From Rhizaria sp. SCN 62-66 (taxonomy: Eukaryota): a stretch of DNA of 26,938 nucleotides. The position numbers and the translations under genes are program-made. A model generated the notes under the pieces. It had not been told where the DNA came from and made no database searches. It saw only the letters and a program-made list of their open reading frames with translations. Shown here piece after piece: positions 5,301 through 26,047 of the stretch (position 1 is its first letter; every line of letters starts with the position of its first letter). The stretch lies in contig MEDY01000052.1 in assembly GCA_001724265.1 (NCBI GenBank), forward strand, positions 124,001 to 150,938, given 5' to 3'.

Positions 5301-8300
5301 CCTCCGCATCAGCAGCCTTCGTCTCAGCATCCTCAGCCTTGACTTGCGCAGCAGCAGCCTTGAATTCTGCCTCAGCAACCTTGTCCTCAGCCGCGAGCAC
5401 CTTCTCCTCTGCATCAGCCGCCTTAGTCTCCGCAGCGGTCGCGCGGCTCTCGGCCTGAGCGGCTTTGTCGTCGGCCAATACAGTCTGCGCCTCGGCCACG
5501 GCGGCGCGCTCCTCGGCCTCCGCAGCCTTGCGCTCAGCACCGGCGGCAGTAGCCTCAGCATTGGTGGCGCGCTCATTCGCAGCAGCGAGGTTCTCGGCTG
5601 CCTCAGCAGCAGCGGAGTCAGAAGCGGCGGCACGCTGCTCGGCGCCGGCAGTGGCAGCCTCAGCAGTCGCCTTCTCCTCCTCAGCCTTGGCCGCCTTGGC
5701 CTCAGCCTCATCTGCGCGCGCCTCCGTCGCCTCAGCCTTGATCTCAGCAGCCTGAGCCTTGGCCTCAGCCTCAGCCGCGCGTTCGCGCGCCTCGGCCGCC
5801 TTGCGTTCCGCCTCAGAAGCGCGGGCCGCCAGCTCGCCGCCTTGTTCCTCACTCGCAGCCTCGGCCGCGGTGAGACGTTCCTGCAGCGCTGTGGTGGCGC
5901 GCTCAGCCGCACTGAGGCGCTCACGAGCGTCGGCCAGATCGGTCTGCGCGCGCTCCGCGTCCTCACGCGCTCTGTCACCAGCAGAGCGAGCGGCGGCGAG
6001 GTCCTCCTGCGTACGTGCAAGCTCCTCCTGGGCCTGGGCGAAATCCGCAGAAGCCGTGCTGCACTGCGCCTGCAGAGCGTCGCGTTCCACGGCCGCGGCC
6101 TCCGTCGCAGCCTCAGCCGCAGCAAGCGCGTTCGCAGCTTCAGCCAGTGCGGCGTCAGTCTCAATGAGCTTGTTCTCGGCGCCAGTCAGCTGCTCCGACG
6201 CGGCGGCCAGCGCGGACGTCGCCTCAGCCAGACTCGCGTCAGCCGCGGCAGCAGTCGCTTCGGCAGCGGCGGCCTTAGCCTCGGCAGCCGTAGCCTTCTC
6301 GTCGGCGTCGGCAGCCTTTGACTCAGCTGCCTTCGCGCGCTCCTCGGCATCCGCGGCGCGAATTTCGGCTTCCTCAGCGCGAACTTCCGCTTCGGCGCCC
6401 GCGCGCTCAGCCTTCTCAGCGCGCTCCTCCGCAGCGAGAGTCGTGCTTTCGGCAGCTGCCACCTGTTCCATCGCCGCTGCGACCTTAGCAGCAGCGTCCG
6501 CAGCAGCCGCATCAGCCTCCTCGGCCTTGCGCTCAGCAGCAGCCACCTTGGCAAAAGCCTCCTCAGCCTTGGTTTCGGCCTCAGCGAGCTTAGTCTCAGC
6601 CTCGGCAGTCTTCTCCTCGGCCGCGATCGTGCGCTCCGCCGCATCGGCCGCGTGTTCGCGGGCCTCATCGGCGCGCGCCTCGGCCTCGCGAGCGCGCTCG
6701 AGAGCGGCGTCGCGCTCAGACTCGGCGAGCTCGGCGCGCGCCGCGGCCACCTGCTTCTCAGCAAGCACGGCGTCGCTGTCGGCGGCGCCAGCGTCACGCT
6801 CAGCACGCGCCTTGTCGGCCTCGGTGGAGGCGCTCGTGGCGTCGTCACGCGCGATGTCGCGCTCGGTCTCGGCCGCCTGGCGCGCAGCGCGAAGCTCCGC
6901 ACACTCTTCCTCGACAGCAGCAACTCGCTGCTCAGCCTCGGCCGCGCGCACAAGCGCCGCCGCAGCGCGCGCCTCAGCATCAGCCAGCGCGGCGGCGTCG
7001 GTCTCGGCCTGGCTCTCGAGCGCCGTGACACGGGCCTCCTCGGTGGCCATTGCGTCCAGCGCCGCGGCCAGGGCGTCAGTCACTTCCTCGAGCTTGGCCT
7101 CGGCCGCAGCCAGTGCGGTGTCAGCCTCGGACGTGATAGTGCCAGCCTCAACAGTGCGCGCCTCGGAGTCGGCCGCGGTGGAGTCGGCCGTCTCGCGCGC
7201 AGCCTGCACGCGATCGGACGCAGCGCGCGCAGTCTCGTCGGCGGCGACCAGCGCAGCGCCGGCCTCGGTGAGCTTCTTCGCGAGCGCGTCAGCAACCTTC
7301 TCGTGCTCATTAGCGGCGGCGAGCTTCTGCTCAAGCAGCGCCTGCGCCGCCTGCGAAAGCACCTGCTGCTCGAGCAAGTCGGCATCGATCTTGTCGCGCG
7401 CGGCCGTGGCCTCTGCGAGTTCGCGGCGGCACTCGGCGAGCGCGGCCTCGGTCTGCACCAGTCGCTGACTGTCCTCCTGGGCGTCCTCGTGCAGCTCCTC
7501 GGCACGCGAGTCGGCCTCGACCTTCTGCGCCACCATCGCCATCAGACGCTCCTCGAGCTCCTCGCACTTGCGCTCAGCCGCTCTGGCTGCCTCGCGCGCA
7601 GCACTCTCCTTGGCTTCAGCCTCGGCGGTCTTGACATTGGACTCAGTAATCTTAGTCTCGGCCTCAGTAACTTTAGTCTCGGCCTCGGCAGCCTTGGCAT
7701 CAGCTTCAGCAGTCTTCGCTTCCGCCTCAGCGACCTTCGTCTCCGCTTCAGCAGCCTTCGCCTCAGCGTCAGCAGTCTTGGCGTCGGCCTCGGTGGCCTT
7801 CTCTTCAGCAGCGGCGGCCTTGGTCTCAGCAGCAGCGATCTTCTCCTCAGTGGCAGTGACCTTCTCTTCTGCGGCAGAAGCGTTCTTCTCGGCAGCAACA
7901 GCCTTCTCCTCGGCAGCAGCAGCCTTCTCCTCGGCGGCAACAGCCTTGGCCTCGGCAGCCTTAGCGCGCTCCTCAGCCTCAGCGGCGCGCGCGGTGGCCA
8001 CGGCGACACGGTCATCACCAGACTCGCGTGTCTCTGCTTCGACAGCTTTAGCCTTAGCCTCAGCCGCCTCAGTCTTGGCATCAGCAGCAACAGCCTTGGC
8101 CTCAGCGGCAGCGGCACGCGCCTCAGCGGCCTCAGCCTTGGTCTCGGCCTCCTGCGCGCGCGCGTCCGCGGCCTCCACAGCGCGCGCGGCGGCGGCGTCG
8201 TGCTCCTCGCCGCTCGCGCGCGCGGCGTCCAGTTCGGCGACGGCGGCCTCGAGCCGCGTGCGCGCGTCGTCGAGCACGCGCTGCGACTCATCCAGCGCGG

Positions 8301-11300
8301 CCTCACCAGCGGCCATCTGTTCGCTTACACTCGCGGACGCGGTCTCGCGGGCGGCCTCGGCTGCGGTAGCCTCAGCGCGGGCCAGTGCGGCCTCGGCGCG
8401 CGCCGCGGCGGCGGCAGCCTCGGCAGCGGCGGTCGCAGCCTCAGCGGCGACTAGCTCAGTGCGTGCCGCAGCCAGTGCGGCGTCCTTCTCCTCGTTCGCG
8501 GCGGCGGCGTCGGCGGCGGCAGTCTCAGCGGCGGCGCGCGCAGTCTCCGCAGCATCGCGTGCAGCGTCGGCTTCGGCGCGCGCAGTCTCGGCCGCGTCGC
8601 GGGCGCTCTGCGCTGCGGCAGCGTCGTCCTTTGCGGCGGCGGCCACCGTCTCTGCCTCAGTCGCGCGCGCCTCCGCAGCAGCCGCACGCTCCTCAGCGGC
8701 GGCAGCGCGGTCGTCGGCGTCGCCCGCACGGGTCTCAGCGGCGAGCGCGCGCGCGGTGGCCTCCTCGGCGGCCGTCTCGGCGGCGCGCGCCTCGGCCTCG
8801 GCAGCGCGGACCTTGGCGGACACTGCAGCGGCGTCAGCGGCTGTCGTCGCGGCGGCCGCGGCCGAGGCCGTGCTGTGGGCCTCGGAGCCCGCGCGCGAGC
8901 GCGACTGCGGCGTGTTGCGGCCCGACACGGAAGACCGGCGCGAGGACTGCAGTGACGCGACGAGCTTCATATTGTCGCGCGCGACGGCGATTTGCTCGCG
9001 CACCTCGGCGTTGACGGCCTCGAGCTCGGCGCAGCGCAGCGCAGTCGCCGCGGCAAGCGCCTCGGCGCCAGTAGCACGGTCCTCAGCGTCGGCCGCGGCG
9101 CGCACGGCTGCCGCGAGATCCGTCTCGAGTCCGCTGACCAGGTCCTGGATCTGCTCTGCGCGGTTAGAAACCTGTGATTGTCGGTGAAGGAATGAAGAGG
9201 AAAAAATAATCAGTCAAGTTTCATGTGAGAAAGTGATCATTATGATGTGTGTCAAATAACAATAGATAGTCGGCATACTGCGGTGAATGCGTGTTTGTAT
9301 TGAAGTGGTGATGAGAGGTTGGACGCGGCGAACGGGGCGGGGCGCGGCGGCAGGGGCGGCGCAGAGCAGGGAAGTACGTGCGCGGGGACGGACGGGGACA
9401 GGCACGGAGGGAAAGGCTGAGGGGGGAGACAGGCGGGATGACTCTCAGCAGGCAAAGAGGTCCTGATATTCAGAACCATTCCTTTCGCATGCTGAGAGTC
9501 AAATGATCACACATGTGTGTTCTCCCCCGTCGCGCCCCCGCTGGCCCTCTCTTCTCCGGCACGCCACCGTGCAGTTGCCCCGCGACAAGACTGTCCCGCT
9601 CCACACACACGCCTCCACCGCCGCAACCCCGTCCACGCGACGCGCTCCACCTCAGCAGCAACAACGACAAACAGACAAACATTCGCATCAGTTCTCAACA
9701 CGCATAACATGTGTTGATAGAAATCACAGAAACAAACAATATTGAGCATAACGGTAGTATTTAAAAATATGTAAACAGACAGCCACGTCGTGCGGCGAGA
9801 TGTGGGCACGCTGCTGAACGAACTCAGTGCGACGAGTTAACAGCAGCCTCGCGGGCGCTGACGCTCATCTCACGTCTCTCGAGTTCGCTCGACAACATGT
9901 CCAGCTCGCACGACGCGTGTTTCAGGCCCTCGGCCAGTGAACGTACATCCTCAGCAGACTCTTGCCAACGCTACACAAAGGAAAAACAATGTGGGAGAAG
10001 TATGAGCAAATAGAGTGATGTGCATTTAGCGAATAAAGAAAAAACACCACAGAAGTCAGTCAAACAATGTTGCAAAAGCTTCGTACCTTCTTTTCCATAC
10101 GGAGCTCCTTGTAGGCCCCGGCAAGCTCGAGCAGTTGCGCCTTGAAGCGCTCCAGGAGCTCGGTCTGCTCTGCAGCCTCGACTGCGGCGGCCTCGGAGCG
10201 CTTACGCGTGGCGTCGAGCTCCTCCTCCAGGTGGGCCACGCGCAGGGCCTCCTCGCTGTTGACGCCCGCGGCGGCAGCGGCGTCGGCGGCCTTGGCTTCG
10301 GCCGCGCTTACCTTGCTCTCGGCGTCGGCCGCCTTCTTCTCGGCCTCGGCGGCCTTGGCCTCGGCGTCGGCGACCTTTTTCTCGGCCTCGGCGAGCTTGC
10401 TCTCAACGTCGGCCAGCTTGGACTCGGTATCGGCCAGCTTGGTCTCGGCGTCGGCGAGCTTCGTCTCGGTCTCAGCGGTCGCGACGTCGGCGTCCTCGAG
10501 CGCCTGCTTGCGCTTCTCCAGCGCAGTCCGCAGCGCGCCAGACTCGGCCTTGGCGTCAGCCACGCTCTTGATGGCGTCCTCCAGGTCGCCACGCATGTCG
10601 GCGCGCTCGTCGCGCGCGTCGTTAAGCTCGGCGCACAGGTCGCGTCCGGCCTTCTTGAGTCCGGCCAGCGCGCTGTCAACCGCGGCGCGCACGGTCGCGT
10701 CGTCGGCGTCGGGCCTTGTGGCCTCGGCCTCGGGCTCAGCAGTCTTGTCAGCCGTGTCGGTGGGCTGCGAGAGCTGCGAGTTGACCACGCGCTCCAGGTT
10801 GTGCACGCGGTCCCACACGTCGCAGAGGTACTCGCAGAGTGCGCGCCGGGCCGTCTCCGCCTCAGCCGCCGCGGCGGCAGCCTTCTCGGCAGCCTCGGCC
10901 GCGCCCGCGGTCATGGTCTCGCCCTCTGGGTCGGCAGATGCCGGGGCCGCGTTGTCGGCTTGCGCGTTAGCGAGCGCCTCGCGCACCTCGGCGAGCGTGG
11001 CCTCGACGGCCGAGAGTTCCTCACCGCGGCGTTCCGCGGCTTCCTCGCTCGCCTTGACGGCGGCGCGCGCCTCGTCAAGCTCCTCGCGCAGCTCGTCAAT
11101 CTCGCTGCGCGCGGCTGTTAGCGCGGCCTCGGCGCCGGCCAGCTCCTCGCCGCGGCGGTCAGCAGCCTCTTCGTTGGTCTTGACCGCGACGCGGGCTTCG
11201 GCCAGCTCCTCCTGGAGCGCGGCGTTCTCTTCACGCAGAGACTCGGTCTCGGCAGTTGCAGCGGACAACGCGGCCCGGACTTCGTCAACGGCGGCGCGCG

Positions 11301-13810
11301 CCGCGTTAAGCTCCGCAGCAGCCTTAGTGGCAGTGTCGCCGCTCACGGAAGCATCGGGGTCGGTATCCTTGAGCTTGGAAACAAGCTCAGCATGGCGGGC
11401 CTCAGCATCGTTGGCGCGTGCGGTCTCCGCAGCGAGAAGAGCCTCAATGCTCTCGAGTTTGATTTGCGCGGCATCAGCATTCGCATTGGCCTCGACAACC
11501 TTTTGCTCAGCATCGGCAACCTTAGTCTCGGCCTCAGCAGCCTTGGCCTCAGCGTCAGCGACCTTGGCCTCGGCGGCCTCAGCACGCGACTCAGCGGCTG
11601 CAATGCGCTCAGCAACCTCATCGTTGGAGCCTGCAGATGCCTCGGCAGCGGCCTGAGCAGCCTTGGCGGCCTCAGCCTCGGCCTTAGCAGCGGCAATTTC
11701 AGCCTTAGCGGCCTCAGCTAAAGCCTTGGCGGCAGTCGCCTCCTCCTTGGCAGTCTCGGCCTCGGTCTTGGCGACCGCAGCGTCGCTCTCAGCCTTGGCA
11801 GCGCGGTCGTCAGCCTCCTTGCGGGCCTTCTCGGCTTCGGCGCGCGCGTTCTCGGCCTCCTCAGTCGCGCGCGTGGCCGTCTCGAGCGCGACCGTGTCGG
11901 CGCCCGCGAGCGCCTTAGCGGCCTCGGTCTCGGCCTTGGCCGCGTCGATCATCGCCGAGGCAGACTCGACCGCGGCGTTGGCGGCCTCGGCCTCAGCCTT
12001 AGCGGCCTCAGCCTCGGCCTTGGCAGCGGCAGCAGCGGTCCGAGCGGCCTCGGCGTCGTCGCGCGCGTCCTTGCACTCGTCCTGCAGGGCCGCCACGCGG
12101 TGTGTGAGCGTCGCGAAGGCCTGGCGCGTCTTGTGCAGTGTCTCAGCGCGCTGCGTCACGAGCTCGCGCGAGAGCACTGTGAGCTCAACGGCCGAGACCG
12201 CGGCGGCGTCAGCGTCGCTCTTGGCTTCGTCGGCCACGCAGCACTGCGCGCGCGCGTGAGCTGAGCACACCGACACGCCGGCGCGGTCCCACGCCGCGGC
12301 GGGGCCGTCCGCGGCTGCCGCGGCGGTCTCGGACTCGGCGTCGTGTGTGTGCGCGGGGGTCTTGCGGAAGACCACGGTGGCGAGCACGCCCGCACGCGCC
12401 GTGGTAGCGGCGGCGAAGAGCGTGCGCGCGCGGTCGCTGCCGGCCTCCTCGCCCTCGACGTCGGCGCCGCCAGAGACTGACGACGACGACGATGACGACG
12501 ACGACGACGCGGCGATGGGCACGGCGGCGCAGAGCTTGCGCTGCGCAACGCCCACGGGCGCGGTCCAGGTGCCGGCCGACGCAGAGGACGCGGCGCCCGT
12601 GGTGGCGGCGGCGGCGGGGAGCGCAACGACGCGCTGCCAACCCGAAGCGTAGAGGACCGAGGCCAGTGCGGGACCAACCAGCGTCACTGTCTGCACGCCC
12701 AGCGGGCCGGCAACGCCGGCCGCCGTCGCGGCCGCGGGGTCGGCAAGCGCGGCCGTAGCGAGCACGGTGCCGAGCGCGGGGGGCGCTGCGCCGGGCGCGG
12801 GAAGCGCGACGAACGAGAGCGTGCCCGCCGCGGTCGCCACCAGCAGCGCGCCGGACGCGGTCGGGACGACGGCGCGCACGGGCGAGCGGTCGGCGCCGGC
12901 AGGGAGGTGCGACTCGGACAGAGGGTGCGCGGTCGCAACCGTGGGCGCCGCGGCGGAGAGCAAGAAGAGCGAGTTAAGCGCCAAGGGCGCAGCGCCAGCG
13001 AACACAGCACCGTGGCCCGAGCCCGCGCTAGCGCTCGCGGTGACGGCTGTGAGTGCGGAGCAGGCGGGCAGCGGGACCGAGGGCGCGCGACGGTCCATCT
13101 TGCGGCCGCCGCCGACGGCGGGCAGCTGCAGCGTGACGGCGGCGCGTGCGGAGGCCGCGAAGTCCGCGTGGAAACCGTCGCCACTGCGGGTCAGCGCCCA
13201 AACCGTGGGGAGCCCGGCGTCGGCGTCCGCGGCGGTGCTGTGGTCACTGGGCACGGCCGCAAAGGCAACGATGGCGTCGGCGCCGTTGATCTGCGCGGTA
13301 GCGGCGGCCGGGAGCGAGCCCTGGACCGCGCAGGAGACGGCGTCGATCACGGCGACAGCGCCGGAGGCGTAGCCCAGCAGCACGGACTTGTCACAGGTCG
13401 CGATCGCCGTAACAGCGTTGGCGGAGCAAACAGAGCCCGCGGAGGCGTCACCCTCGGCAACGACGCGGATGAGTTCGCTGGAAGTGGCGTCGTATACGTG
13501 CAGAGCGCCGTTCTGATAGGCAACCCACTGGTGCAGTTTGTGGGGGCCGATATTAGAATCTAGATACGATCAAGGAAGATACAGAGAGCAGAATGCTTGA
13601 GATAGTGTAAAGGAATGTAACAGGGTTAAATCAAAAGGACTGATATGCATCTAGAACGATGCATATGTCTCATATGAGGCCAGTAGGTGGGTGTGGAGGG
13701 TGGGAAGCGTAAGATAACGAACCTTTCGAGATTGGAACAGGGACGACGGCCATTGTGGACACTGCCAGGCCGGTCGGCCGGGACTGTACCACAACAGGGT
13801 AATGACCCAT
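2329..13810 (-). CDS. Giant Ala/Glu/Lys-rich coiled-coil protein with beta-strand-rich (WD40/propeller-like) N-terminus; long isoform model join(13810..13723,13559..10087,9970..9947,9171..2329), about 3475 aa
   Basis: The ORFs 10060..13383 and 2329..9105 extend upstream to splice acceptors at 13560 (GTATCTAG|) and 9172 (ATCACAG|). Donors G|GTTCGT (13722), AAG|GTACGA (10086) and GAT|GTACGT (9946) give phase-compatible joins. ATG 13810 sits just after TTTTAG|C. Stop is TAA 2331-2329. Extensive AEAK/ADAETK heptads. The join across 9946..9172 is inferred. Confidence 0.7.
4300..5460 (-). repeat. Degenerate 21-nt (7-aa) tandem repeats encoding coiled-coil heptads (AAEAEAK/VADAETK/LKEAEAK); boundaries approximate
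   Basis: Recurrent gccttagcctcagc/gccttggcctcggc units on +; heptad periodicity in the translation. Similar blocks at about 7620-8140 and 10290-10470. Confidence 0.8.
9172..9946 (-). other. Putative spliceosomal intron (775 nt, GT-AG) of the long isoform
   Basis: Donor GTACGT at 9946; 3' end TGACTGATTATTTTTTCCTCTTCATTCCTTCACCGACAATCACAG at 9172; phase 0 on both sides. Confidence 0.55.
9824..9970 (-). CDS. Alternative terminal exon of the coiled-coil gene (RWQESAEDVRSLAEGLKHASCELDMLSSELERREMSVSAREAAVNSSH*), giving a short isoform of about 1235 aa
   Basis: Polypyrimidine plus TAG acceptor at 9973-9971 in phase 0 with donor 10086; 49 codons of coiled-coil-like sequence ending in TGA 9826-9824; followed by T/G-rich 3'UTR-like sequence. 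Confidence 0.6.
   Translation of the reverse strand, partial: RWQESAEDVRSLAEGLKHASCELDMLSSELERREMSVSAREAAVNSSH
9971..10086 (-). other. Spliceosomal intron (116 nt, GT-AG)
   Basis: AAG|GTACGA ... TTTTTCCTTTGTGTAG|CGT; AT-rich; contains the ORF-track stop; phase 0. Confidence 0.85.
13560..13722 (-). other. Spliceosomal intron (163 nt, GT-AG)
   Basis: AAAG|GTTCGT ... TCTTCCTTGATCGTATCTAG|AT; phase 1 join restores GAT and an open frame from ATG 13810. Confidence 0.7.
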
Positions 13811-13869: not shown

Positions 13870-14610
13870 CGCGTGTAAATTCAAACTGAGTAAACTGCCG
13901 TTGGAGATTGGACTGCACTGTGATCAGCCCCGCTCGTGAGCGGGACAAACCACCATGAAGACGCTGTCAAAGCAATATGAAGTAATATTTAGGCCAACAA
14001 ATGTAATATTTTGAAATGAGCTGCCGCAACGATAGTCTCGTTTTGCATTGTCCCGTTTAGAGCTTCGCGTGGCTGGTCCCGACGGCGCCGGCTAGACTTT
14101 TCGGTCAGGCTGTAGGTCGATTTTTCGGTCCCTAAGCCGAGTGACAACAACAGCAGGGGTGTCTTCGAGACGTGAGGGCGATAAGACGAAACAATGACAA
14201 TTCCTGGGAAGTCACTGTCAGATTTTAGCTAAAACGCATATGCGTATTTTCTAGGATGCTTTCTTTGCATCCCATTTATTTTTTCGTCTGGCGTGAGCGA
14301 CTGCACTTCACGAGCGAAGGTGGCTGCGCCGTTCGAATGGCTCCGTCCTCCCGCTCAGGAGGGGCTACGTAGAGGCGCCTCTATCGTGTTTGCAGACTTA
14401 TAAGCAACCCTTCCATGAAGCATGTGTTTGAAAACGCAGGATTGTTGACGACCGAACCGCCTCGGCTTCTTCTTCTGGCTCTACAACCGCTATGTATCCC
14501 TTTTGCCTCCTCATCAGAATCTGTGATTAAGATATCTCTTCACTCCTGCTTGCCGCCTCCGCCCCCATCACAACCCTATCGTCCCGCATCACTTCACGTA
14601 CAACCACTCA
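13870..14610. promoter_or_regulatory. Divergent (head-to-head) intergenic/promoter region between the coiled-coil gene and the kinase
   Basis: Inferred only from gene orientation (ATG 13810 on -, ATG 14670 on +); no specific motif identified. Confidence 0.45.
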
Positions 14611-14669
14611 CCCGTATGACTGCCTATGTTCACTTTTTTCGTGCCCACCACCCAGACGCTCCGTCCACG

Positions 14670-17627
14670 ATGGCTGACGTCGCCAAGAACTCCCCCGAGC
14701 AGCCGCAGCAGCAGACGGTGCACGTCGTCGGCACCTACATCGTCGGCCCCACCATCGGCAAGGGCTTCTTCGCCAAGGTGAAGCGAGTTGAGGACCAGTA
14801 CCGCAACATCTGGGCCATGAAGTGCTTCGACAAGGAGCGCATCAGCAAGTCCGCCCACTCGCTCAAGCAGGTCGAGAAGGAGATCAACGCGCTGCGTCTG
14901 TGCAACCACCCGAACGTGGTGCACTTCCACGAAGTGCTCGAGGTCGAGAACACCGTCTATCTCATCATGGAATTTGTGCCTCACGGCGAGCTGTTCGATT
15001 ACATCAAGTCGCGCGGTCGCCTGCCCGAGCCCGAGGCGGTGTACCTGGCCAAGCAGGTCGTGTCTGCGCTCGACTACTGCCACCGCTGCGGCATCGTGCA
15101 CCGCGACATCAAGCCCGAGAACGTGCTCATCGACTCGCAGAACAACATCAAGATCGTCGACTTCGGTCTCGCGACGTTCTACCTGAGCTCCGACTACACC
15201 GGCGCCGAGAGCGCGCCGCTGCCGTCGCCCGAGGAGATGGACAGCAAGCCGGCCATGGAGAACTTCAAGCAGCTGCAGACGCAGTGCGGCTCCCCGCACT
15301 ACGCCGCGCCCGAGGTCCTGCTCGGGCTGGGCTACCACGGCCCCTCTGCCGACATCTGGTCGCTGGGCGTCATGCTCTACGCCATGGTCACCGGCTCGCT
15401 GCCCTTCACGGCGCGCACGATCCCGCAGCTCGTGCAGAAGATCGTCTCGGGCGTGTACCGCTTTGCGCCCTTCATGTCGCGCAACGCCAAGCACCTCATT
15501 GGCTCCATGCTGCGCGTGAACCCGCGCGACCGCATTACGATGGCCGAGATCATCGCGCACCCGTGGTTCTCCGAGACCGAGGCGTGGGTGCCGCCCGCCG
15601 TCGCCGCCGAGGCCGAGGCCGCCGCCGCCGCCGCGGGCGCTGCGGGCGCCGTGCCCGGCGAGTCGGCCGCCGTGCGCCTGCTGGGCACAATGGCGTCCAA
15701 GCTCGCCGCCGCCAAGCGTTCCGAGGCGTCTGCCGTGGTGTGCTCGGCGTGCAACAAGGCGCTCTCGGTGCGCCGCGACGCCAAGGGCATGTACGTGCTC
15801 TCGGCGGGGCCCGAGGCGGCGGCGCGCGACGCCGGCGCGGACCTTTGCCAGTGCGCGAACCCGCTCTGGTCGCAGGGCTCTGTCTCGCACAGCGGCAGCG
15901 GCAGCGGCAGCGGCAGCAGCGACGGCAGCAAGCGCAACGTGCTGGAGCTGCCTTCGGTCACCGGCGGCGCCATGACCATGGCCAAGCAGTTCGAGTCCTC
16001 GCCCTCGGCGCAGATGTCGTTTGACGCAGCCATGTTCCGCCCGCCGCCGCCCGTGGACATGACGCGCACGGCGCCGTCGCAGCGCGAGTACGAGATGCTG
16101 CGCGCGTGCGAGGACGGCCAGCTCGACGCCGTGCGCGCGTTGCTCTACGACGCGCCCCCATGCCCCGTGCTCAGCAAGGCCGCCAGCAGCTAGGCCGCGA
16201 GCCGGCGCTCCATGAACGCGCCCGCGGGCGCGGCCTCGCCCACCGCCGCGGCCGCCTCACCCGTCGCTGCCACGGCCACTGCGGCGTCGAGTCCTGCTCT
16301 GGCGACGCCCAGCGAGGCGTCTGAGAAGAAAAAGAACAAGCTCAAGAGCCTGTTCCACTCGATGGCGCACGCCGTGCGCGGTGACACCGACGTGTCATCG
16401 GCCGTGGTCGCGCCCTCCTCGGTGGCCTCCGACGCCGACTCCTCCTCGGGCTCGCTCGCCTCCACCGGCGACGAAGACAGCGACGAGTTTGTCGAGGCGC
16501 TCATGGACTGGCGCCTGCGCGGCACCTGCGCGTGTCCCGACCAGAGCCACCGCCTTGACCTGCGCGCGCGCGGCGCCGACAACTGGACCGCGCTGCACTT
16601 CGCCGCGCGCTCGGGCTCGGCGGCCATCGCGGAGGAGCTGATCCTGTCGTGCCTGCCGCTGGACATCAACGCCGTGACCAAGTCGATGTGGACGCCGTTG
16701 ATGCTGGCCGCCGACAAGGGTCACACGGCTGTGGTGGAGCTGCTGCTTAAGTACCGCGCCGACATCCACGCCGCGACGGCCGACGGCAAGACGGCCATCT
16801 TCCTCGCCCGCGAGCGCAACTTCTCGAGCATCTCGCAACGCCTGACCGAGGCGTCGTCGACGCGCCACCTTGCCGCGCTCAAGCACAACCCCTTCGTGTC
16901 GGCCGACGCGTCGCACGCGCTGACGACGTCTGAGGAGCACGGCGGCCACAGCGGCGGCAGCGGCGGCGCCGAAGACGAGGACGCCGCCAGCCCGGCCATC
17001 CTGTCGATTGTGCACGCCGTGCAGTCGATCAAGGCAGCCACCGAGGCCGCGATCGGATCCTCCGCCGCCGGCTCCAGCAGCGCGGGTGGCGCGCAGGACG
17101 CCGACGCCGTGCGCCGCGCGTGGTTCTCTGCCTCGCCGCTGCAGGCGGACCTTTTCGGCGCCTGCGAGACGGGCGACATCGCGCGCGTCAAGAAGCTCTT
17201 CGAGCTCTCGGTGCAGGCCGTCAACAACCTTCACGCGACGTCGCCCGCGGGCACGCCCATCCCTGCCGCTGAGGTGGACTTTTTTGCGCGCGGCATCGAC
17301 AACTGGTCGGTGATGCACTACGCGGCGCGCAAGAACCACCACAAGGTGCTAGTGCAGATCGTCGAATCGCTCGTGGGCGCCAACGTGCCTGCCAAGAGCA
17401 TCATCGACGAGATCAACGCCGTCACCAAGTCGGGCTGGACCGCGCTCATGATGGCCGTGGACCGCGGTCACGTCGAGTCGGTGCGCCTACTGCTGCGCTG
17501 CGGCGCCGACGCCTCGATCCGCGCCACCAACGGCGAGACCGCGCTCTCGCTCCTCTCCGCCTACCGCAACCAGTCCCAGTTCCCGTACGCGCTTCTCAAG
17601 GACCTCCTCGAGGGCAAGCGCGTCTGA
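14670..17627 (+). CDS. SNF1/AMPK-related (CAMKL; BRSK/MARK-like) Ser/Thr kinase with two C-terminal ankyrin-repeat modules; 985 aa if the in-frame TAG at 16191-16193 (codon 508) is decoded
   Basis: Kinase motifs in about 14736-15569: IGKGFFAKV, AMK, KEI, HPNVV, GELFDYI, HRDIKPEN, DFG, TQCGSPHYAAPEV, DIWSLGV, HPWF. Ankyrin motifs WTALHFAA, WTPLMLAADKGHTAVVELLL, WTALMMAVDRGHVESVRLLL. ORFs 14415..16193 and 16212..17627 are in the same frame, linked by TAG GCC GCG AGC CGG CGC TCC ATG. Coding-like GC content starts at ATG 14670; ends at TGA 17625-17627. Confidence 0.88.
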
Positions 17628-18354
17628 GTGCGCAGCTTGTTGTCTGTACGGTGACTGGTAGGCGTCATTGGTCTTCTCGTTTTGTTTGTTAACATTATCT
17701 GCTTTGCTGGTGCTGTTTGTTGTTGTTGCTGTTTCTGTTGACATTACAACAGAGCGGTTTTTATCTCTTTGTTGATGCGTGTTCTTATTGCTCTGTTCTC
17801 CCAAAATAATCTTTGTTTTTTGTCCTCTTTTCAATCTACCGCGCGTTGTATCGACTTCGCGCTTGCCGTAATAACATGCAAAGATTCCCTGCCATCATTG
17901 CATTGATACCATCACCTTGCCTTCGTGCTGTTCACGTTTGCAACTGGTGTGTGATCTTGCCAAAGTCTCTCGCGCTTTAATTTGACCCAAAAATACACAG
18001 AAAAACCACCTTTGTATGTTTTCATTCTTAACTCCCCTTCGTAGTTAATGACAACACACACGACGAAGCAAGACGTTTTCATCACAATATGCAAGTAAAA
18101 TAGTGCTAGTGTGGTTAAAATAAATGTATTTTAGATAAATTATTTGTTTTTGAACAGATTTGTTTTGAATAAACGTTGCAGTGTTGATTACCGTGTTTTT
18201 GTGTTGCTAACATCGAACTGTCAACACATTGTTATTGCCTTAAGTTTTGTCAATATTTTTGTTCGTATGTTTCTGTGTTCTGTACTATCTTCTTTCATAC
18301 TCATATTTTTGACTCAACTCCCCTACATAATCACTTTATAGCACATCTCATGGC

Positions 18355-18732
18355 TTAAAAGCCGCGAGGCTGCACGCCCCACTGCGTCTGCTGCGCCGGA
18401 GGCTGCTGCTGTTGCTGCGGCTGCTGGACCTGGCCGAACGCGGCGCCGGCACCCGGCTGCACGCCCCATGCCGCTGCGGCCGAAGTGGGCATCTGGTAGC
18501 CCATGCCCATGCCCATGCCCATCGGGTTCATGCCGCCCATCATCATGCCGGGCATGCCGCCCATGCCCATGCCGCCCATGCCGGGCATGCCGCCCATCGC
18601 GGGCATTGCGCCCATGCCGGGCATGCCGCCCATGCCGGGCATGCCGCCCATGCCGGGCAGCGCGTCCATGCCGGGTAGCGCGGCGTCTACACCAGGCAGC
18701 GCGGTGACGCCGGGCAGCGCGCCCATGCCGGG

Positions 18733-18775
<43 letters not shown>

Positions 18776-21700
18776 GCCATCGCGCCGAAGCCCGCCATGC
18801 CGCCAAAGCCGGGCATGGCGCCCATGCCGGCCATGCCCGCGCCCGCGAAGGCCGAGGATGTGGCGCCCGCGGCGTGCGCCTGCGGCTGCTGCTGTTGTTG
18901 CTGCTGCTGGGTGCGGGCGCCCGCGGCGGCGGCGTTGCGCGCGGTGCGCTGCTTATTCTTGTTCTCAAGCAGGCGCTTCATCCCGCCGATGAGCTCCTCG
19001 GGCGTCTTGGCCACGCGGTCAGCGCCCGTGTGGTCCGAGTAGTGGAACCCACCGGGCGTGACACGTGCGCGCTCGCGGGCGGCCTCGCGGCCGGGCAAGT
19101 ACGTGAACTCGACGATGAGCGGCGAGCGAGGATGCAACGAGAGCAGGTACGGCAGCGTCTGCTTGCGCACGCGCGCCTCGCGCTCCAGCTGCGCCTCGAC
19201 CTGGTCGCGCGGGCCGTCGAAGAAGACCTTGTGGCCGACGAGTCCCTTGAGCACGTCCATGACAGGCTCAACGAAGCGCGAGATGACTTCGTCCAGGTCT
19301 TCGTACTCGCGCAGGTACTGGCGCGGGTTGATCGCGTCGCGCGCGTCGCCCAGTGCCTCGGCGTGGCGCTTCACCAGCGCCTCCGTCCCGGGCGGATCCG
19401 TGTCGATCACCAGGCGCCGGCCCAGCGCCGTGGGGTCGCCCGTGGGCTTGTCGTGCTCGGCGATCTCGACGTGCACGAAGCGGTCCTGTGCCACGTTGGG
19501 CACGCGGAACGACGCCACCAGCGAGCGCAGCCCATCAGTCTGCGACGGCCGCAGCACCACGGTCGACGGCGCAGTTGCCGCGACGTGCGCGAGCAGCTCC
19601 TCGGCCTCGGCCTTGGTCATGTTCTTGAACGTGTCGTGCGATACGTTGCGGTGCACGATCTGCACGTCGGCCTGCTTCGGCGGCGGGCAGATATGCTGAT
19701 CGTCGGGATGCACCCACGAGGACCGCGCGGCGTCGAAGTACATATACTTGCCCTCGTGGCGCGCCTGTATCGTCTTAAACACCTCGAGCGACTCGGGGCG
19801 GTTCAGCGACGTGTGCGCCGTCGACAGCCGCACCGACGCGCGCTCGTACTGCACCTGGAAGATCACGGCGCGCACTTCCTGGCCAACCTTAACGCGCTCC
19901 TGGAGCCAGAGCTTCTGGGCCTCCTTGCGCGCCTCGCCCTGGCCGGGGAAATAGGGCGTGGTGGACGACACGCTCGTGATGGGCACGAAGCCCGCCACGC
20001 GGTTCGCCAGCTCCACGACGATGCCGTCGGGCTTGATCGCCTTGACCTGTGCGAGCACGTGCTGGTGCACGTAGAGCGTGTCCTCGGTCTCGCCTGTGCA
20101 CAGCCGGAACAGGTCCTGGGCCGACGGCGGGCCGCGGCGGCGCAGCGCCACGGCGGGCAGCAGGTCAGCGCGCACGCGAAGCTTGGCCTTGGTGGCGTTG
20201 TCGAGCACCTCGGGCACATGCGACGTTTCCTCCAACAGGTCCGCGGCGGCCACGAGGCGCGCGAACGACTCGAGCACCTCCGAAGTCGGCGGGTCCGCGA
20301 ACGGGCGCACGAGCTCGCGCGACGACAGGTAGAGGATATCGAGCATGTGGCGGTTCTGGTTGCGGCGCTGCGCGGCGAAGGCGTGCAGGTCGAATTCTTT
20401 GAGCGTGGATAGCAGCCAGTGGCCCTTGTGCGCGAGACGCGCCATGACGGCGTTGATGCGCAGGTGCATCGTGTCGGTGACGCTCTGGTGCGTGTCCTTC
20501 ATGCGCATGCGCATCGCGGCCACTTCGAGTGAGTCGGCGTCGGCGCCGCGGCCCTCGGCGCGCTCCATGTCGTCGTGCGCCTTGTTCGAGTCCACCAGCT
20601 CGGCCTCCTCGGCCTCGGTCAGCCCCAGCGCAGTCATGGTGCCCTTGCCGCCCTTATCGCTCTTCTTGCGGCCCCGGTCGCCCTTGACCTTCTTGGTCAC
20701 GGGCGGCGGCAGCGCGTTCTGCGCCTCGGCCAGTCCAAACAGCACCTCGAGCAGCAACTGCGCAGCCTCGCGGTAGTGCTCCGGCGGCACGCGCGTGCGG
20801 TCCAGAAACGGCACACGCGCGGCAGCCACGCCCTGGATCGCGGACCCGGCGGAGCGCGCACACACGCGCAGGAAGCCCGCGGCGTTGCGGTACACGGCGC
20901 CGCCCAGCACGCCGTTGGCGGCGCCGTTGGAGGCGGCCGCGGACAGCAGGTCGGCGCGCGTGTTGACCGAGCCCGAGCGGCCGAGGAAGGCCGAGAGCGC
21001 GCGCGCCTTCTGGGGGCCCAGCCCGGGCACGAACTGCAGCGGCGCGACGAGGTGCTGGCGCAGCCCCACGCCGGCCTGCACCAGCGCGTTAACGTCGACG
21101 CCCAGGCGCGCAGTGGCCTGCTGCAGCGCGCGGCGCAGCGCGGCGAGCAGCACGCTGCGCGGGAGCAGGTCCTGGTCCTTGTGCAGACGCAGCGAGAGGA
21201 TCTCGCACGCCTGCTGGCTCGTCGCGCGCGACGACGTCCACAGCGCGGCGAGCGTCGCCAGCGGGTTGATGGCCATGCGGCCAATGGCAGCGGCCTTGCG
21301 TACGAGCGGGTGCGCCGTGGGCATCTCCTGGCGCGAGCGCGCAGAGGTCATGTACACGCGCCCCACCGTCGGGTCCGCCAGCTCGAACTTGAGCCAAGGC
21401 TGGTCGTACAGCACCTTGGACTGCAGGTCCGTGATGAAGCCGCTCGAGTTGGGCGTGGCCGCGTCGACGAGCACGAGCGCGGGGCGGTACGTGGTCATGA
21501 TGTCGATCAGCACGCGCACGTCCATCTCCTTGCTACGCTGCACCTCGCCCGCGGCCTGGATGCGCGACCCGGCTTGCGAGCCGCCCTGGAGCGCGAGCGC
21601 CTGCATGCTGCGCTCGTTGGTGCGCGTCTTGAAGGCCGTCAGCACGGCCTGCTCCATCACATCGCCCTGCGAGTTGAGCACCACCAGCGACAGCGGCTCG

Positions 21701-24700
21701 CGGTCGTCGCCCTGCACGATCGACGCCACGCACCACCCGCGCGCGCCGCCCAGTGTGAGCCCACGCACGCGCGCCGAGCGCCGCTGCTTCTCCGCGCGCG
21801 CCTCGTCGCGGGCCGCGCGCCGCGCGCGCTGGCGCTCGCGGGACGCCACGGTGTCGTCATCGTCGTCGTCGTCGTCGAGCGCGTTGAAGGCGTCGTCCTC
21901 GGAGTCCGAGTCGCTCTCGCCGCCGTCGCTGCCGCGGAGCGCGTCGGGATCAGACAGCTCCGTGTCGTCGTCCGCAGAGTTCGAGCCTGCCGCGGCGGCG
22001 GTGCCGGGCGCGGCCCTGGGCTCCTCCTTCTTGGTGAGCTCGGCGTTGGCGCGGGCGGCGCGGCGCGCGGCCACGCGGGCGGCGCGCGCGGCGCGGCGCG
22101 TGGACGCCGCGGCGTCGAGGGGCTCTGTGAGCAGCATAGGCAGCAGCGCCTCGGTGGCGATGCGCGCCGACAGCAGCCGGTCAGCCGAGAGACGCACTTC
22201 GTCGAGCAGCAGGCGGCGCACGCTGGGCAGCAGGAACGTCATCACGGCCTCCTGCATCACCAGCGCGCGCGCGCGGGCCAGCCACGCGCCCTCGTTCTCC
22301 GCCTCGGCCTCCCCGTCAGCGCCGGCAGAGGCGCTCGCAGCCGCAGCCGCAGCCGCGAGCATGGCGCCCGCGCGCAGCCCGAGGCCGACGACGGGCTCGG
22401 CCGCGAGGTGCGGGCGCGCGTGCGCGCCGCCCTCGGCCAGCGCGCTGCACACGCCAGCCAGCTCGTGATCCGCGGCCGGCACCAGCTCAAAGGCCCAGTG
22501 CGGGCGGAACGTCCCCGCCTGCGGCAGCGCGGCCAGCGTCTCGGCGTCGAGGTGCGCGTGCATGGCGGCGTACTCGTCCGCCGACATGGGCGTCTGTCGC
22601 TGCGGCGTGTGGTGCAGCACGATCGACACGTACTTAGCCTGCGCGGCGGCGAAAATCTTGGGCAGCAGCTCCGGCGCGGCGGCCAGGTGCGACAGCGGCA
22701 TCGACGCCACGCGGCGCGCCACAAACAGCCGGTGGTTCCACTCCAGCTCGGCCACGCCCTTGGGCAGCGGGATTGTGGAGAGACGCATCTGCGGCGTGAG
22801 CGACTCGGACAGCGAGGTCCGCAGCACAGGGTCCTGCCCCACGCGCGAAGCCGCGCGGCGCCGCGCCGTCAGCAGCACGTCCTCGGGCGACGCGAAGCGC
22901 GGCCCCACGAGTGACTGCGCCAGCACGGCCACGGGCGGCAGCGGCGCCGCGGGCGGCGCGCCCGCGGCGTACGGGTTCTGTTCGCTGCGCTCGAGGTAGC
23001 GGCCCAGCGCGGCTGTGTAGTCGGCCCACGCCGCGGCGAAGGCGTCGGCGTCGGCGCAGGGCACTGCGGCCGCGGTGGTAACGACGCGCTGGCGCACATT
23101 GGAGCGCAGCGCCGCGGTGCTGAGGCCGAGCAGCACGTCGGCGATAATGTCGATCGCGGCATCAACGTGCGCGGTCGACGCGCTCGCCGCCAGCAGCTCG
23201 GGCCGCGCGTACGCGAACACGTGCTCGCCCGCAGACGACGAGACCGCAGAGGGCTCGAGCGTGGCGGACGACGGAGCCAGGGACGCGGCGGCGTCGGCGC
23301 TGCCCGCACTGGCCTCCGACTTGACGCTCTCGGGCTTGACCGCAGGGGCGCGGCGCGGCACGTCGCCCTCGCCCACGAGCTCCTCGTCGTCTGCAGCGGC
23401 GGCGTCGTCGCCGGCCAGGTCGACGGCCTCGAGGGCGCCGGCCTCGGTCTTGACCGCGGCGGCGGCGGCCGGCTTGGCGACGGACTCGTCGATGTCGTAG
23501 CCGAGCTCGGCCTTGACCTCGGTCTTAACGCCGTCCGCGGCCGCCTGCGCGGCGACGAGCGCGGCCATGCCGTGGAACGCAGTCAGCCGCAGGAGGCGGC
23601 GCTTCTCCGACGCCGCGATGAAGCGGCGCGACTCACGCAGCTCCAGCTCCGTGGCCGCGCGCGTCACCGCGCGCCACAGCTCGGCGTCGTGGCCCAGCGA
23701 GAAGTCGCCCGCCACCAGCGCGCCGGCCGCGCGCCCGGCGGCAACGGCGCGGCGCATCAGCGCCCACTCTGAGGCCGTGTACCCGCGGCCCGCAAGCGCC
23801 ACCACGGGCGCGCGCGCGGCCGCCGCGGCGACGGCGGCGACGCTGTCGGCGGCCTCGACGTCCGAATCGGCGTCCGCGCCAGCAGACGCGGCAGTGGCAC
23901 TGGACGTGAGAGGGGCTGCGGCTGCGGCGGCGGGCAGGGCGTCGAGCACGCGGGGCAGCGGGACGAAGTACGGGTCGATGGGGAGCCCCGAGAGCGAGGC
24001 CGGCGGCGCGGGCAGCGGCGCGCGCGCGGCGGCCTAGCGGCTCTCGACGAGTTCCTTCAGCGTGGTTGCGCGCGTGAGCATGAGCGCGTGCCAGCGCTCG
24101 TCGGCCTCGTCGAGCGTCCACACGTCGGCGTCCGACAGCGAGGCCGCGGGGAGCCCCGGGAAGCAGAGCTCGTCGCGCTTGTACGCCACCACATACCCTG
24201 GGTCGAGCCGGTCGCGGTGCAGCAGCCCCAGCAGCCAGGCCACGGCCGCGCGCGTGAGCTCGGAGCGCGGGGCCGCGGCGACGCCCGGCTTTGCGGCGGC
24301 CGTGACGCCCACGCCCAGCGCGGCCGCCGCGGACCCCACCGAGGGCTGCAGCGCCGTGTCCCAGAGCCACTGCGCCTCGGCCTCGAGCGAGAGCTCGCGC
24401 ACCACAGGGTCCATGCGCTGCGCCAGCTCCTGCCCGGCCGGGTCCGCCGCCAGCGCGCGCGCCAGCACGCGCTGCGCAAAGCCCGCGGCATCGGCGGCGG
24501 CGTGCCGGTGGTGCTGCAGCAGCGCCACCTCGCCCGCGCCCGCCGCAGTCGCCACGGCTTCGCGCGCGGCGGACATGTACACGTCCGTCTTGGCGCTGCT
24601 CACGCCCGCGGCCACGCTGGCCGCCTCAGCGGGCGACAGCAGCGCGGGCACGGTCGGCACCGTGTCCACCAGCAGCGGCGCGGGCTGCGGCACGGCGCGC

Positions 24701-26047
24701 GAGAGGTCGAAGCGCTCGGGGTCAGTGCCGCGCGCCTCGGCGTCCTCGGCTGCGAGCTTGTCCAGCACGCCGGGCGCCAGCGCAAAGCCCAGCTCGAAGG
24801 AGCGCGCGTCGATGCCCAGCGCGGCCGCCACGCTCGCGCGCAGCGCCACGCGCGCCTGCAGCCGCTCGGGCACGTCGTGCTCCACCACTGCGCGCGCGGC
24901 CGCCGCAGCCTCCTTGGCGCGCTCGGCGCGCACGCGGGCCGCGCCGCTAAGCACGGGCGCCACGGAGGTCGACGCGGCGGCCGCGGCCGCGGCGGCCGCC
25001 ACGGTGTCAGCGTCGGCCGAGGCGGCGGCCGCAGCGAGCGACTCCTCCTGGCGGCCGAAGAGGCCCTCGACGTCGCCGCCGAACATGGCCGACAGGCGCT
25101 GCTGGTCCGCGAAGGAGAAGCGCGAGAAGGTTGAGGCGCCCGTGACGCGGCGTTGCCCGTCCTCGGCGGCGTCGTCGTCCTCGTAGCCGTCCTCGTCGTC
25201 GTACTCGCCGTCGCCGTCCTCGTCATCGTCGCCGGCACCCGCGCGGCGCACGCGCACGCCGTCGGCATCGTAGGCGTCCTCGTCGTCGCCGTCGCCAGCG
25301 CCGCGCGTGGCATTGGCGAACTTCTTGTTCTTGGGCTTGAGCTTGGCTTCGTCGTCGAGGCCGTCAAAGATGGCGCCGGCGCCGAGGCGCGAAGCCAGCG
25401 GCGAGCCCAGATCGGCCTCTTCCTCGTCGTCGTCGTCGCCGCCCAACACGCGCGACGACGCCGTCTTGGAGCGCTTCGTGGGCGCCGCGGCGGCCGCAGC
25501 GGAAGTATCAAAGCGCATCATGTCCTCCTCTTCGTCGTAGTTGACGTCGAACATCTGCTTGCGCAGGTCCTCCTTGCGCTGCTTCTCGGCCTGACGCTCG
25601 GCCGCGAGCAGCCGCTCCTCAAGGGAAATGTGATCTTCATTTACAAGTGTACGCTTGCGGACAACCACCGTCTCGTCCTAGAGACAGGGGGTATAGAAGA
25701 AATACAGAAATTAATGACGGTGCGGAAGAAGGCAACGACGGAGAAGGAAGCGCGAAGAAGAAGAGCGGGGAGGGTATGGCAACGGTTAGAGAAAGCAAAA
25801 TCAGGCTCACCAAACAAGCAAATAACACACAATCAGAGGAGACTGAAGGGTAATGATACACTGCGATAGAAGAAATGTGATGTTTTACTGCAAAATTGAA
25901 GCTCGAAGCGTTATACGCCCCATATCTGGGGGCGTGGGAAGCTGATTGAAGCACAGGCGGGGTGGCAGCGAAGGGTTATGGTGGGTGTTCAAACAATCAA
26001 CATACCTCATCATCGGCGGGTCGGTTGGTGTCCTGCGTCGACGACAT
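18355..26047 (-). CDS. SPT6: Transcription elongation factor/histone chaperone Spt6; join(26047..26006,25677..18355), 2454 aa if the in-frame TAG at 24036-24034 (codon 562) is decoded
   Basis: Acidic N-terminus; HDVPERLQAR, EAEAQWLW, YVVAYKRDEL and DERWHAL before the TAG. After it: FASPEDVLLTAR, YqgF-like region, GVDVN, LQFVPGLGPQKA (HhH), LDRTRVPPEHY, S1 domain (GFVPITSVS) and tandem SH2 (HDTFKNM...VVLRPS...EYEDLDEVISRFVEP). First exon MSSTQDTNRPADDE|GTATGT; stop TAA 18357-18355. Confidence 0.93.
18497..18840 (-). repeat. Met/Gly/Pro-rich repeats (MPGMGG, MGG) in the Spt6 C-terminal tail, flanked by short polyQ runs
   Basis: Tandem gccgcccat and gccgggcat units on + (9- and 18-nt periodicity). 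Confidence 0.9.
25678..26005 (-). other. Spliceosomal intron of SPT6 (328 nt, GT-AG)
   Basis: GAG|GTATGT ... TTTCTTCTATACCCCCTGTCTCTAG|GAC; pyrimidine-rich; phase 0. Confidence 0.85.

Follow-up and report, generated by a model that had tools for sequence, protein, structure and literature searches.

A 26,938-nucleotide (nt) stretch of contig MEDY01000052.1 (GenBank assembly GCA_001724265.1, Rhizaria sp. SCN 62-66), referred to here in full as the window, carries two neighboring genes that are each interrupted by a single in-frame TAG. One encodes a kinase–ankyrin protein and the other a homolog of the transcription elongation factor Spt6. Our analyses show that both TAGs are real, that they lie in continuous coding sequence and that the two halves of each gene belong together. 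With somewhat better than even confidence, we conclude that UAG is translated in this organism and that UAA and UGA terminate, which is the simplest single explanation of two verified and constrained in-frame TAGs in neighboring genes, one of which is essential in eukaryotes. Each gene would in that case yield one full-length protein, and decoding would most simply rely on a transfer RNA (tRNA) that has a CUA anticodon and on an eRF1 whose release at UAG is no longer efficient. The features on which the analysis centers are as follows, where GC3 is the G+C fraction at third codon positions.

16191–16193, + strand: in-frame TAG no. 1 (TAG1), in the linker that connects kinase domain and ankyrin repeats; context AGC-TAG-GCC-GCG
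24036–24034, − strand: in-frame TAG no. 2 (TAG2), just past the helix-turn-helix–like N-terminal part of Spt6; context CGC-TAG-GCC-GCC
14670–17627, + strand: kinase–ankyrin gene, 986 codons including the TAG and the terminal TGA (17625–17627), with its ATG at 14670; GC3 0.93
18355–25677, − strand: exon 2 of the Spt6 homolog, 2,441 codons including the TAG and the terminal TAA (18357–18355)
25678–26005, − strand: predicted 328-nt GT..AG intron of Spt6, GC 0.48, read from the sequence
26006–26047, − strand: predicted exon 1 of Spt6, ATG plus 13 codons, read in the same way

Two In-Frame TAGs in Continuous Coding Sequence

In the kinase–ankyrin gene, two standard-code open reading frames (ORFs) on the + strand, 14373–16193 and 16194–17627, adjoin in one frame, and reading through TAG1 fuses them into a protein with Pfam matches to both Pkinase (2.5e-69) and Ank_2 (3.2e-40). 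The phase of highest GC runs unbroken from ~14641 to 17580 across TAG1, and the third position is G or C in 19/20 of the 20 codons before it and in 20/20 of the 20 codons after it. An in-frame ATG is present at 16212, six codons past TAG1, and gene callers start a separate ankyrin protein, P0021, at this position. The structure of the gene is clarified by P0022, a 629-amino acid (aa) kinase–ankyrin ortholog of a related species encoded on a 2,664-base contig from a JGI metagenome, which shows 70% identity over 665 aligned columns and has a kinase domain near-identical to that in the window. A single open frame of P0022 covers the kinase and the linker and extends into the first ankyrin repeat. 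Because P0022 encodes them in one open frame, the kinase and ankyrin halves represent one gene. The TAG1 linker is similar in length to that of P0022, being five residues shorter. The protein search with the kinase gene was limited to sequences of 30 to 637 residues, so that longer variants spanning TAG1 in other strains would be missed, and a scan of genome contigs with the kinase gave no match.

The Spt6 gene has the same arrangement on the − strand, where the standard-code ORFs 18355–24033 and 24034–25677 adjoin in one frame and are fused by reading through TAG2. The gene (18355–26047, − strand) encodes an Spt6 transcription elongation factor, with YqgF-like, HhH, S1, and tandem SH2 domains in that order. 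Specifically, the Pfam matches to SH2_2 (1.3e-24), HHH_7, and S1 are above their cut-offs, the YqgF match of 32.7 bits is slightly below its cut-off of 35, and the protein matches SPT6 chains in the PDB with an E value of 9e-21. The highest-GC phase is unbroken from ~18361 to 25560 across TAG2, and G or C occupies the third position in 18/20 and 20/20 of the 20 codons on either side. TAG2 corresponds to residue 559, and homology is found on both sides of this residue: human SPT6 aligns with query residues 440 to 567 and 923 to 1009 in a phmmer search, and P0006 aligns with residues 488 to 549 and 930 to 996 by BLASTP. It is unlikely that either TAG separates two distinct genes, given the single P0022 frame over kinase, linker, and ankyrin repeats and the Spt6 homology flanking TAG2.

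The relatives of Spt6 that could be recovered are distant. The closest matches, 40% identical for a Logan protein and 38% for a brown-alga record, extend over about one fifth of the core. A word-indexed protein search with the core returned six distant matches and one with the N-terminal half returned none, and an exhaustive representative search with residues 159 to 958 retrieved only the window's own upstream ORF. Because these searches gave distant matches or the window's own ORF, no ortholog names the residue at TAG2. Scanning metagenome contigs with the Spt6 core yielded 35 loci of 24 to 33% identity from GC-rich marine eukaryotes, which did not include the source contig and served as controls only. 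Genome contigs gave no match to Spt6, and scans of viral contigs with Spt6 and with the kinase gave nothing or one irrelevant 28% match. The Spt6 gene, with its tandem SH2 domains, and the GT..AG introns identify the source organism as a eukaryote. The C-terminal tail of Spt6 (18400–18870, − strand) is a Met/Gly/Pro-rich 9-nt repeat flanked by polyglutamine (polyQ), and a CCA insertion polymorphism behind 18565 within this tail is seen in both DNA and RNA runs.

The original prediction described two neighboring, otherwise intact genes with one in-frame TAG each, flanked on both sides by GC-rich coding sequence and free of other internal stops or frame breaks. This description held throughout: both TAGs were found at the predicted coordinates between same-frame ORFs, the coding phase is unbroken with a GC3 of about 0.93 to 0.95 through both genes, and the 7,018 modeled codons of the window contain 2 internal TAGs, 0 TAAs, and 0 TGAs.

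Assemblies, Strains, and Transcripts at the TAG Sites

Sequencing or assembly error might create such TAGs, and the region does have a very high GC content (reaching 0.87 next to the TAGs) and poor coverage near TAG2. However, the ORFs that end at the two TAGs stem from Logan as well as ENA assemblies. P0023, the 507-aa ORF that stops at TAG1, is present on 6 contigs (ENA); the 471-aa P0021, which starts at the ATG after TAG1, is also on 6 contigs, and P0024, the 544-aa ORF that stops at TAG2, is on 3 contigs (from Logan and from ENA). Samples may overlap between these contigs, which are thus not fully independent, although different assemblers produced them. At the nucleotide level, the X2/X3 contigs over 15930–17511 and the X4 contig over 15930–17299, the latter from a different study and dated 2025, both include TAG1 and show 0 differences from the window. 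The X2 and X3 contig sets are identical and were counted as one data set. The modeled codons contain no other internal stop or frame break. As a baseline for assembly quality, a single in-frame stop was found across the Spt6 alignments of all 35 other metagenome loci. With TAG-ended ORFs on six and three contigs and TAG1 identical in the contigs of a second study, we regard an error as very improbable.

The TAGs could also be genuine nonsense alleles that abolish function or split the genes, such as a single allele in a diploid or polyploid, or a recent separation of kinase and ankyrin proteins that makes use of the ATG six codons past TAG1. Judging from codon counts, most single-base changes that create a stop at a GC3 above 0.9 would give TAG, so that mutation would be expected to yield two TAGs. 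Moreover, contigs drop rare variants, and none of the listed pieces of the strain represented by the polyA library X7 covers either TAG. Against this explanation, Spt6 would be truncated at residue 559 of its ~2,450 residues and has no restart site close by, the next in-frame ATG being ~95 codons beyond TAG2, and two such alleles would have to occur within 8 kb. In addition, the TAG-ended ORFs recur on the contigs described above, TAG1 is found in runs dated 2016/2017 and 2025, and no alternative letter was reported at either site in four runs.

Strain differences provided a further view of these genes. X7 represents a second strain, and its differences from the window in the kinase gene are 10/10 synonymous and at third positions, including 4/4 downstream of TAG1. 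The part downstream of TAG1 is still under protein-level constraint. In Spt6, synonymous changes make up 3/5 differences beyond TAG2, and the one difference before it is nonsynonymous, a sample too small to judge constraint downstream of TAG2. We therefore consider nonsense alleles, with all downstream differences at TAG1 being synonymous, an unlikely explanation. A decaying pseudogene is likewise unlikely, in view of the 10/10 synonymous differences in the kinase gene and the lack of any other internal stop in the modeled codons.

Finally, the TAGs might be spliced out of the messenger RNA (mRNA) as part of an unusual in-frame, GC-rich intron, or be altered there by RNA editing. Both predicted introns in the window (9971–10086 and 25678–26005) end in TAG, as would also be true of an intron with its 3′ end at one of the in-frame TAGs, and no listed RNA contig spans either site. 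These introns are, however, far more AT-rich than the exons (GC 0.37 and 0.48) and show no codon periodicity, whereas the TAG flanks have a GC of 0.68 to 0.87 and a GC3 of 18 to 20 of 20 and keep their codon periodicity. All in-frame GT..AG candidates of 40 to 400 nt around TAG1 (80 candidates) and TAG2 (26 candidates) have a GC of 0.68 to 0.80. Removal of an intron would also shorten the TAG1 linker, which is already five residues below that of P0022, and no joint is found near either TAG among the 15 listed of 225. A TAG-containing intron is unlikely on these grounds, and we assign a low probability to mRNA-level removal as a whole. An X7 polyA RNA contig lies inside the predicted Spt6 intron, with variants at 25841 and 25855; because it covers this intron, X7 holds unspliced RNA or DNA and is mute on splicing.

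Stop-Codon Usage and the Reading of UAG

The termini of the modeled genes are TGA (620), TAA (2329), TGA (9824), TGA (17627), and TAA (18355), which are the same five as originally listed, with TAG at 0/5 and TAA at 2/5; the terminus at 9824 depends on a predicted intron and that at 620 belongs to a gene with a weak coding signal. Comparison of internal with terminal stops (2 TAG and 0 other versus 0 TAG and 5 other) by Fisher's exact test gave a one-sided p of 1/21. As a rough control, 55 non-redundant long ORFs with a GC3 of 0.80 or higher were taken from the other GC-rich eukaryotic metagenome loci; they end in TGA in 36 cases, TAG in 18, and TAA in 1, although these loci represent unrelated lineages and stop preferences differ between lineages. 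By the control shares, the probability of finding 0 TAGs among five termini is ~0.14, and that of finding two or more TAAs is ~0.003. Both modeled TAA termini occur despite the strong preference for G or C at third positions. Thus, stop usage is compatible with TAA having replaced TAG as a terminator, a comparison that weighs little because the control lineages are unrelated. The very low usage of UAG noted at the outset was also recovered, at 2 in 7,018 modeled codons; if UAG encodes Gln, there would be 2 UAG codons versus 251 CAG/CAA codons. Such low use is compatible with a sense codon that is rare or of recent origin and is exposed to strong GC pressure.

Along with the unrelated origin of these controls, several points weigh against translation of UAG. 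A change of the genetic code cannot be proved from a 27-kb window with two sites and five termini; this number of termini does not suffice to establish the absence of TAG as a stop, and a tRNA scan of the stretch found 0 tRNA genes. Neither TAG falls on a conserved column, so that there is no positive pointer to the encoded amino acid. TAG1 aligns with an E of P0022 in a poorly conserved linker column, and seven distant Spt6 sequences have A, N, A, E, A, A, and E in the TAG2 column; the weak human SPT6 alignment pairs TAG2 with Q, which we count as no evidence. P0022 has no in-frame stop in its 629 codons, an observation that is uninformative at such low UAG usage, and the X7 kinase contig begins at 16196, three bases past TAG1, and so is silent on it. 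In data beyond the window, TAG1 is present in contigs of two studies, but no read piece spanning TAG2 was found among those listed. Last, both TAGs lie in the context GC-TAG-GCC-GC, which a generic sense codon would not predict.

This shared context bears on a further explanation, in which the standard code is retained and UAG is efficiently read through at these two sites only, by site-specific programmed readthrough directed by the context and a GC-rich hairpin. Of 200,000 codon pairs drawn at random from these two genes, 0.39% shared 7 or more contiguous flanking bases, a pattern that was picked post hoc. Hairpins at 16191–16236 and 24036–23997 have the same closing stem, AGGCCG/CGGCCU, of six pairs from the A of UAG. 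AGGCCG occurs 27 times in the two genes and is followed by its complement 4 to 40 nt downstream in 3 cases, two of which are the TAG sites. Within their own genes, the TAG windows rank in the top 0.6 to 11% of hairpin stability. However, the fraction of similar-GC windows that are at least as stable as the TAG hairpins is 0.07 to 0.55, and the z-scores against shuffles are −0.45 and +0.49. As the stability effect is gone among windows of equal GC, the hairpin was set aside as evidence. Moreover, 0 Rfam families match, and cellular readthrough usually extends C-termini and is not needed midway in an essential gene. Site-specific readthrough is thus improbable, on a par with nonsense alleles, and is kept as a rival because the shared TAG context remains unexplained.

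A slightly smaller chance is given to an intermediate state between readthrough and full reassignment, in which an unsampled non-ciliate lineage would be at an early stage of UAG capture; decoding would still depend on context, and UAG would be tolerated in flexible linkers only, inside the GC-UAG-GCC-GC context and a hairpin beginning in the codon itself. With assembly error, an intron, adjacent separate genes, and a decaying pseudogene each having lost ground, translation of UAG, as proposed in the original prediction, is now the leading reading and the prediction is partly supported, a genome-wide change of code being no more than a candidate.

Known UAG Codes and the Source Organism

Reassignment of UAG alone, with UAA and UGA kept as stops, has been described in the nuclear code of Rhizaria sp. 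exLh, a sainouroid rhizarian in which UAG encodes Leu, and of Iotanema spirale, a fornicate in which UAG encodes Gln and accounts for ~8% of Gln codons (Panek et al. 2017, PMC5304391). In phyllopharyngean ciliates, UAG has been reassigned to Leu or Gln (McGowan et al. 2024, PMC11687900). Nuclear codes with a change of UAG without UAA were long believed not to occur, and few lineages are known (PMC5304391, PMC11687900). The present case resembles exLh and I. spirale in having in-frame UAG with UAA and UGA retained as stops, in the possibility that UAG is a minor codon, and in the CUA tRNA expected as the mechanism. It differs in scale: their codes were read transcriptome-wide from conserved Leu or Gln columns, whereas here there are two sites on non-conserved columns and far lower usage. 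Like the phyllopharyngean case, this one is a UAG-only change found by environmental genome mining with UAA retained as a stop; unlike it, where suppressor tRNA genes were found, the data here consist of the window, with 0 tRNA genes. The gene structure seen here, with long genes, a GC3 above 0.9, and introns of 116 to 328 nt, is unlike that of ciliate macronuclear genomes.

Two further types of system invite comparison. In the ambiguous stop/sense codes of Condylostoma, Parduczia, karyorelicts, and Blastocrithidia, a stop codon is translated inside genes, as proposed here; in those codes, two or three stop codons are affected and frequently used, whereas in the window TAG alone is involved, and rarely. 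Stop recoding directed by cis-elements includes programmed readthrough and the bacterial and archaeal elements for Sec and Pyl insertion. The two TAG sites are like such systems in having a common context and an adjacent hairpin, and unlike them in that hairpin stability is ordinary for equal GC and no known family matches. We know of no cis-element for UAG recoding inside eukaryotic cellular genes.

The organism is a GC-rich, intron-poor, uncultured eukaryote of bioreactor and wastewater metagenomes: words of the stretch are present in 16 listed public runs from 9 studies, all of them labeled as bioreactor, wastewater, or sludge metagenomes. We found no report of a GC-rich wastewater eukaryote with sense UAG in the literature, in a limited search that cannot show that none exists. 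The code would be a UAG-only code of known type and, if confirmed, would stand out by its very low usage and possibly by its lineage. It would represent a further independent UAG-only case, in a GC-rich, non-ciliate-looking organism that recurs in the wastewater data of several studies. The extremely low usage would inform how a stop codon is first captured, and the case could serve as a test of codon capture under GC pressure. In practical terms, standard gene callers already split both genes at the TAGs, and P0021, P0023, and P0024 are such pieces, on a contig of 39,308 bases.

Five genes can be modeled in the window, with a GC3 of about 0.9 or more in genes and a GC of 38 to 55% in intergenic sequence. 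Exons (GC3 above 0.9) stand out so sharply from non-coding sequence (38 to 55% GC) that composition alone suffices to read gene structure. Apart from the kinase–ankyrin and Spt6 genes, the features are the following.

3–620, + strand: 3′ end of a polyQ-containing gene, terminal TGA at 618–620; weak coding signal, GC3 0.65
2329–9213, − strand: Ala/Glu/Lys-rich coiled-coil protein, open frame of 2,294 codons with a 21-nt repeat period; terminal TAA at 2331–2329
9824–9970, − strand: predicted last exon of a coiled-coil gene, ending in TGA; depends on the predicted intron
9971–10086, − strand: predicted 116-nt GT..AG intron of the coiled-coil gene, GC 0.37, with splice-site–like ends and a restored frame
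10087–13569, − strand: main exon of the Ala/Glu-rich coiled-coil gene

The two coiled-coil genes (2329–9213 and 10087–13569, − strand) are giant and adjacent and consist of repeats of 21 nt (7 residues), whose families reach up to 90 copies. Both have a lower GC3 (0.69 and 0.82) than the neighboring genes (0.92 to 0.93).

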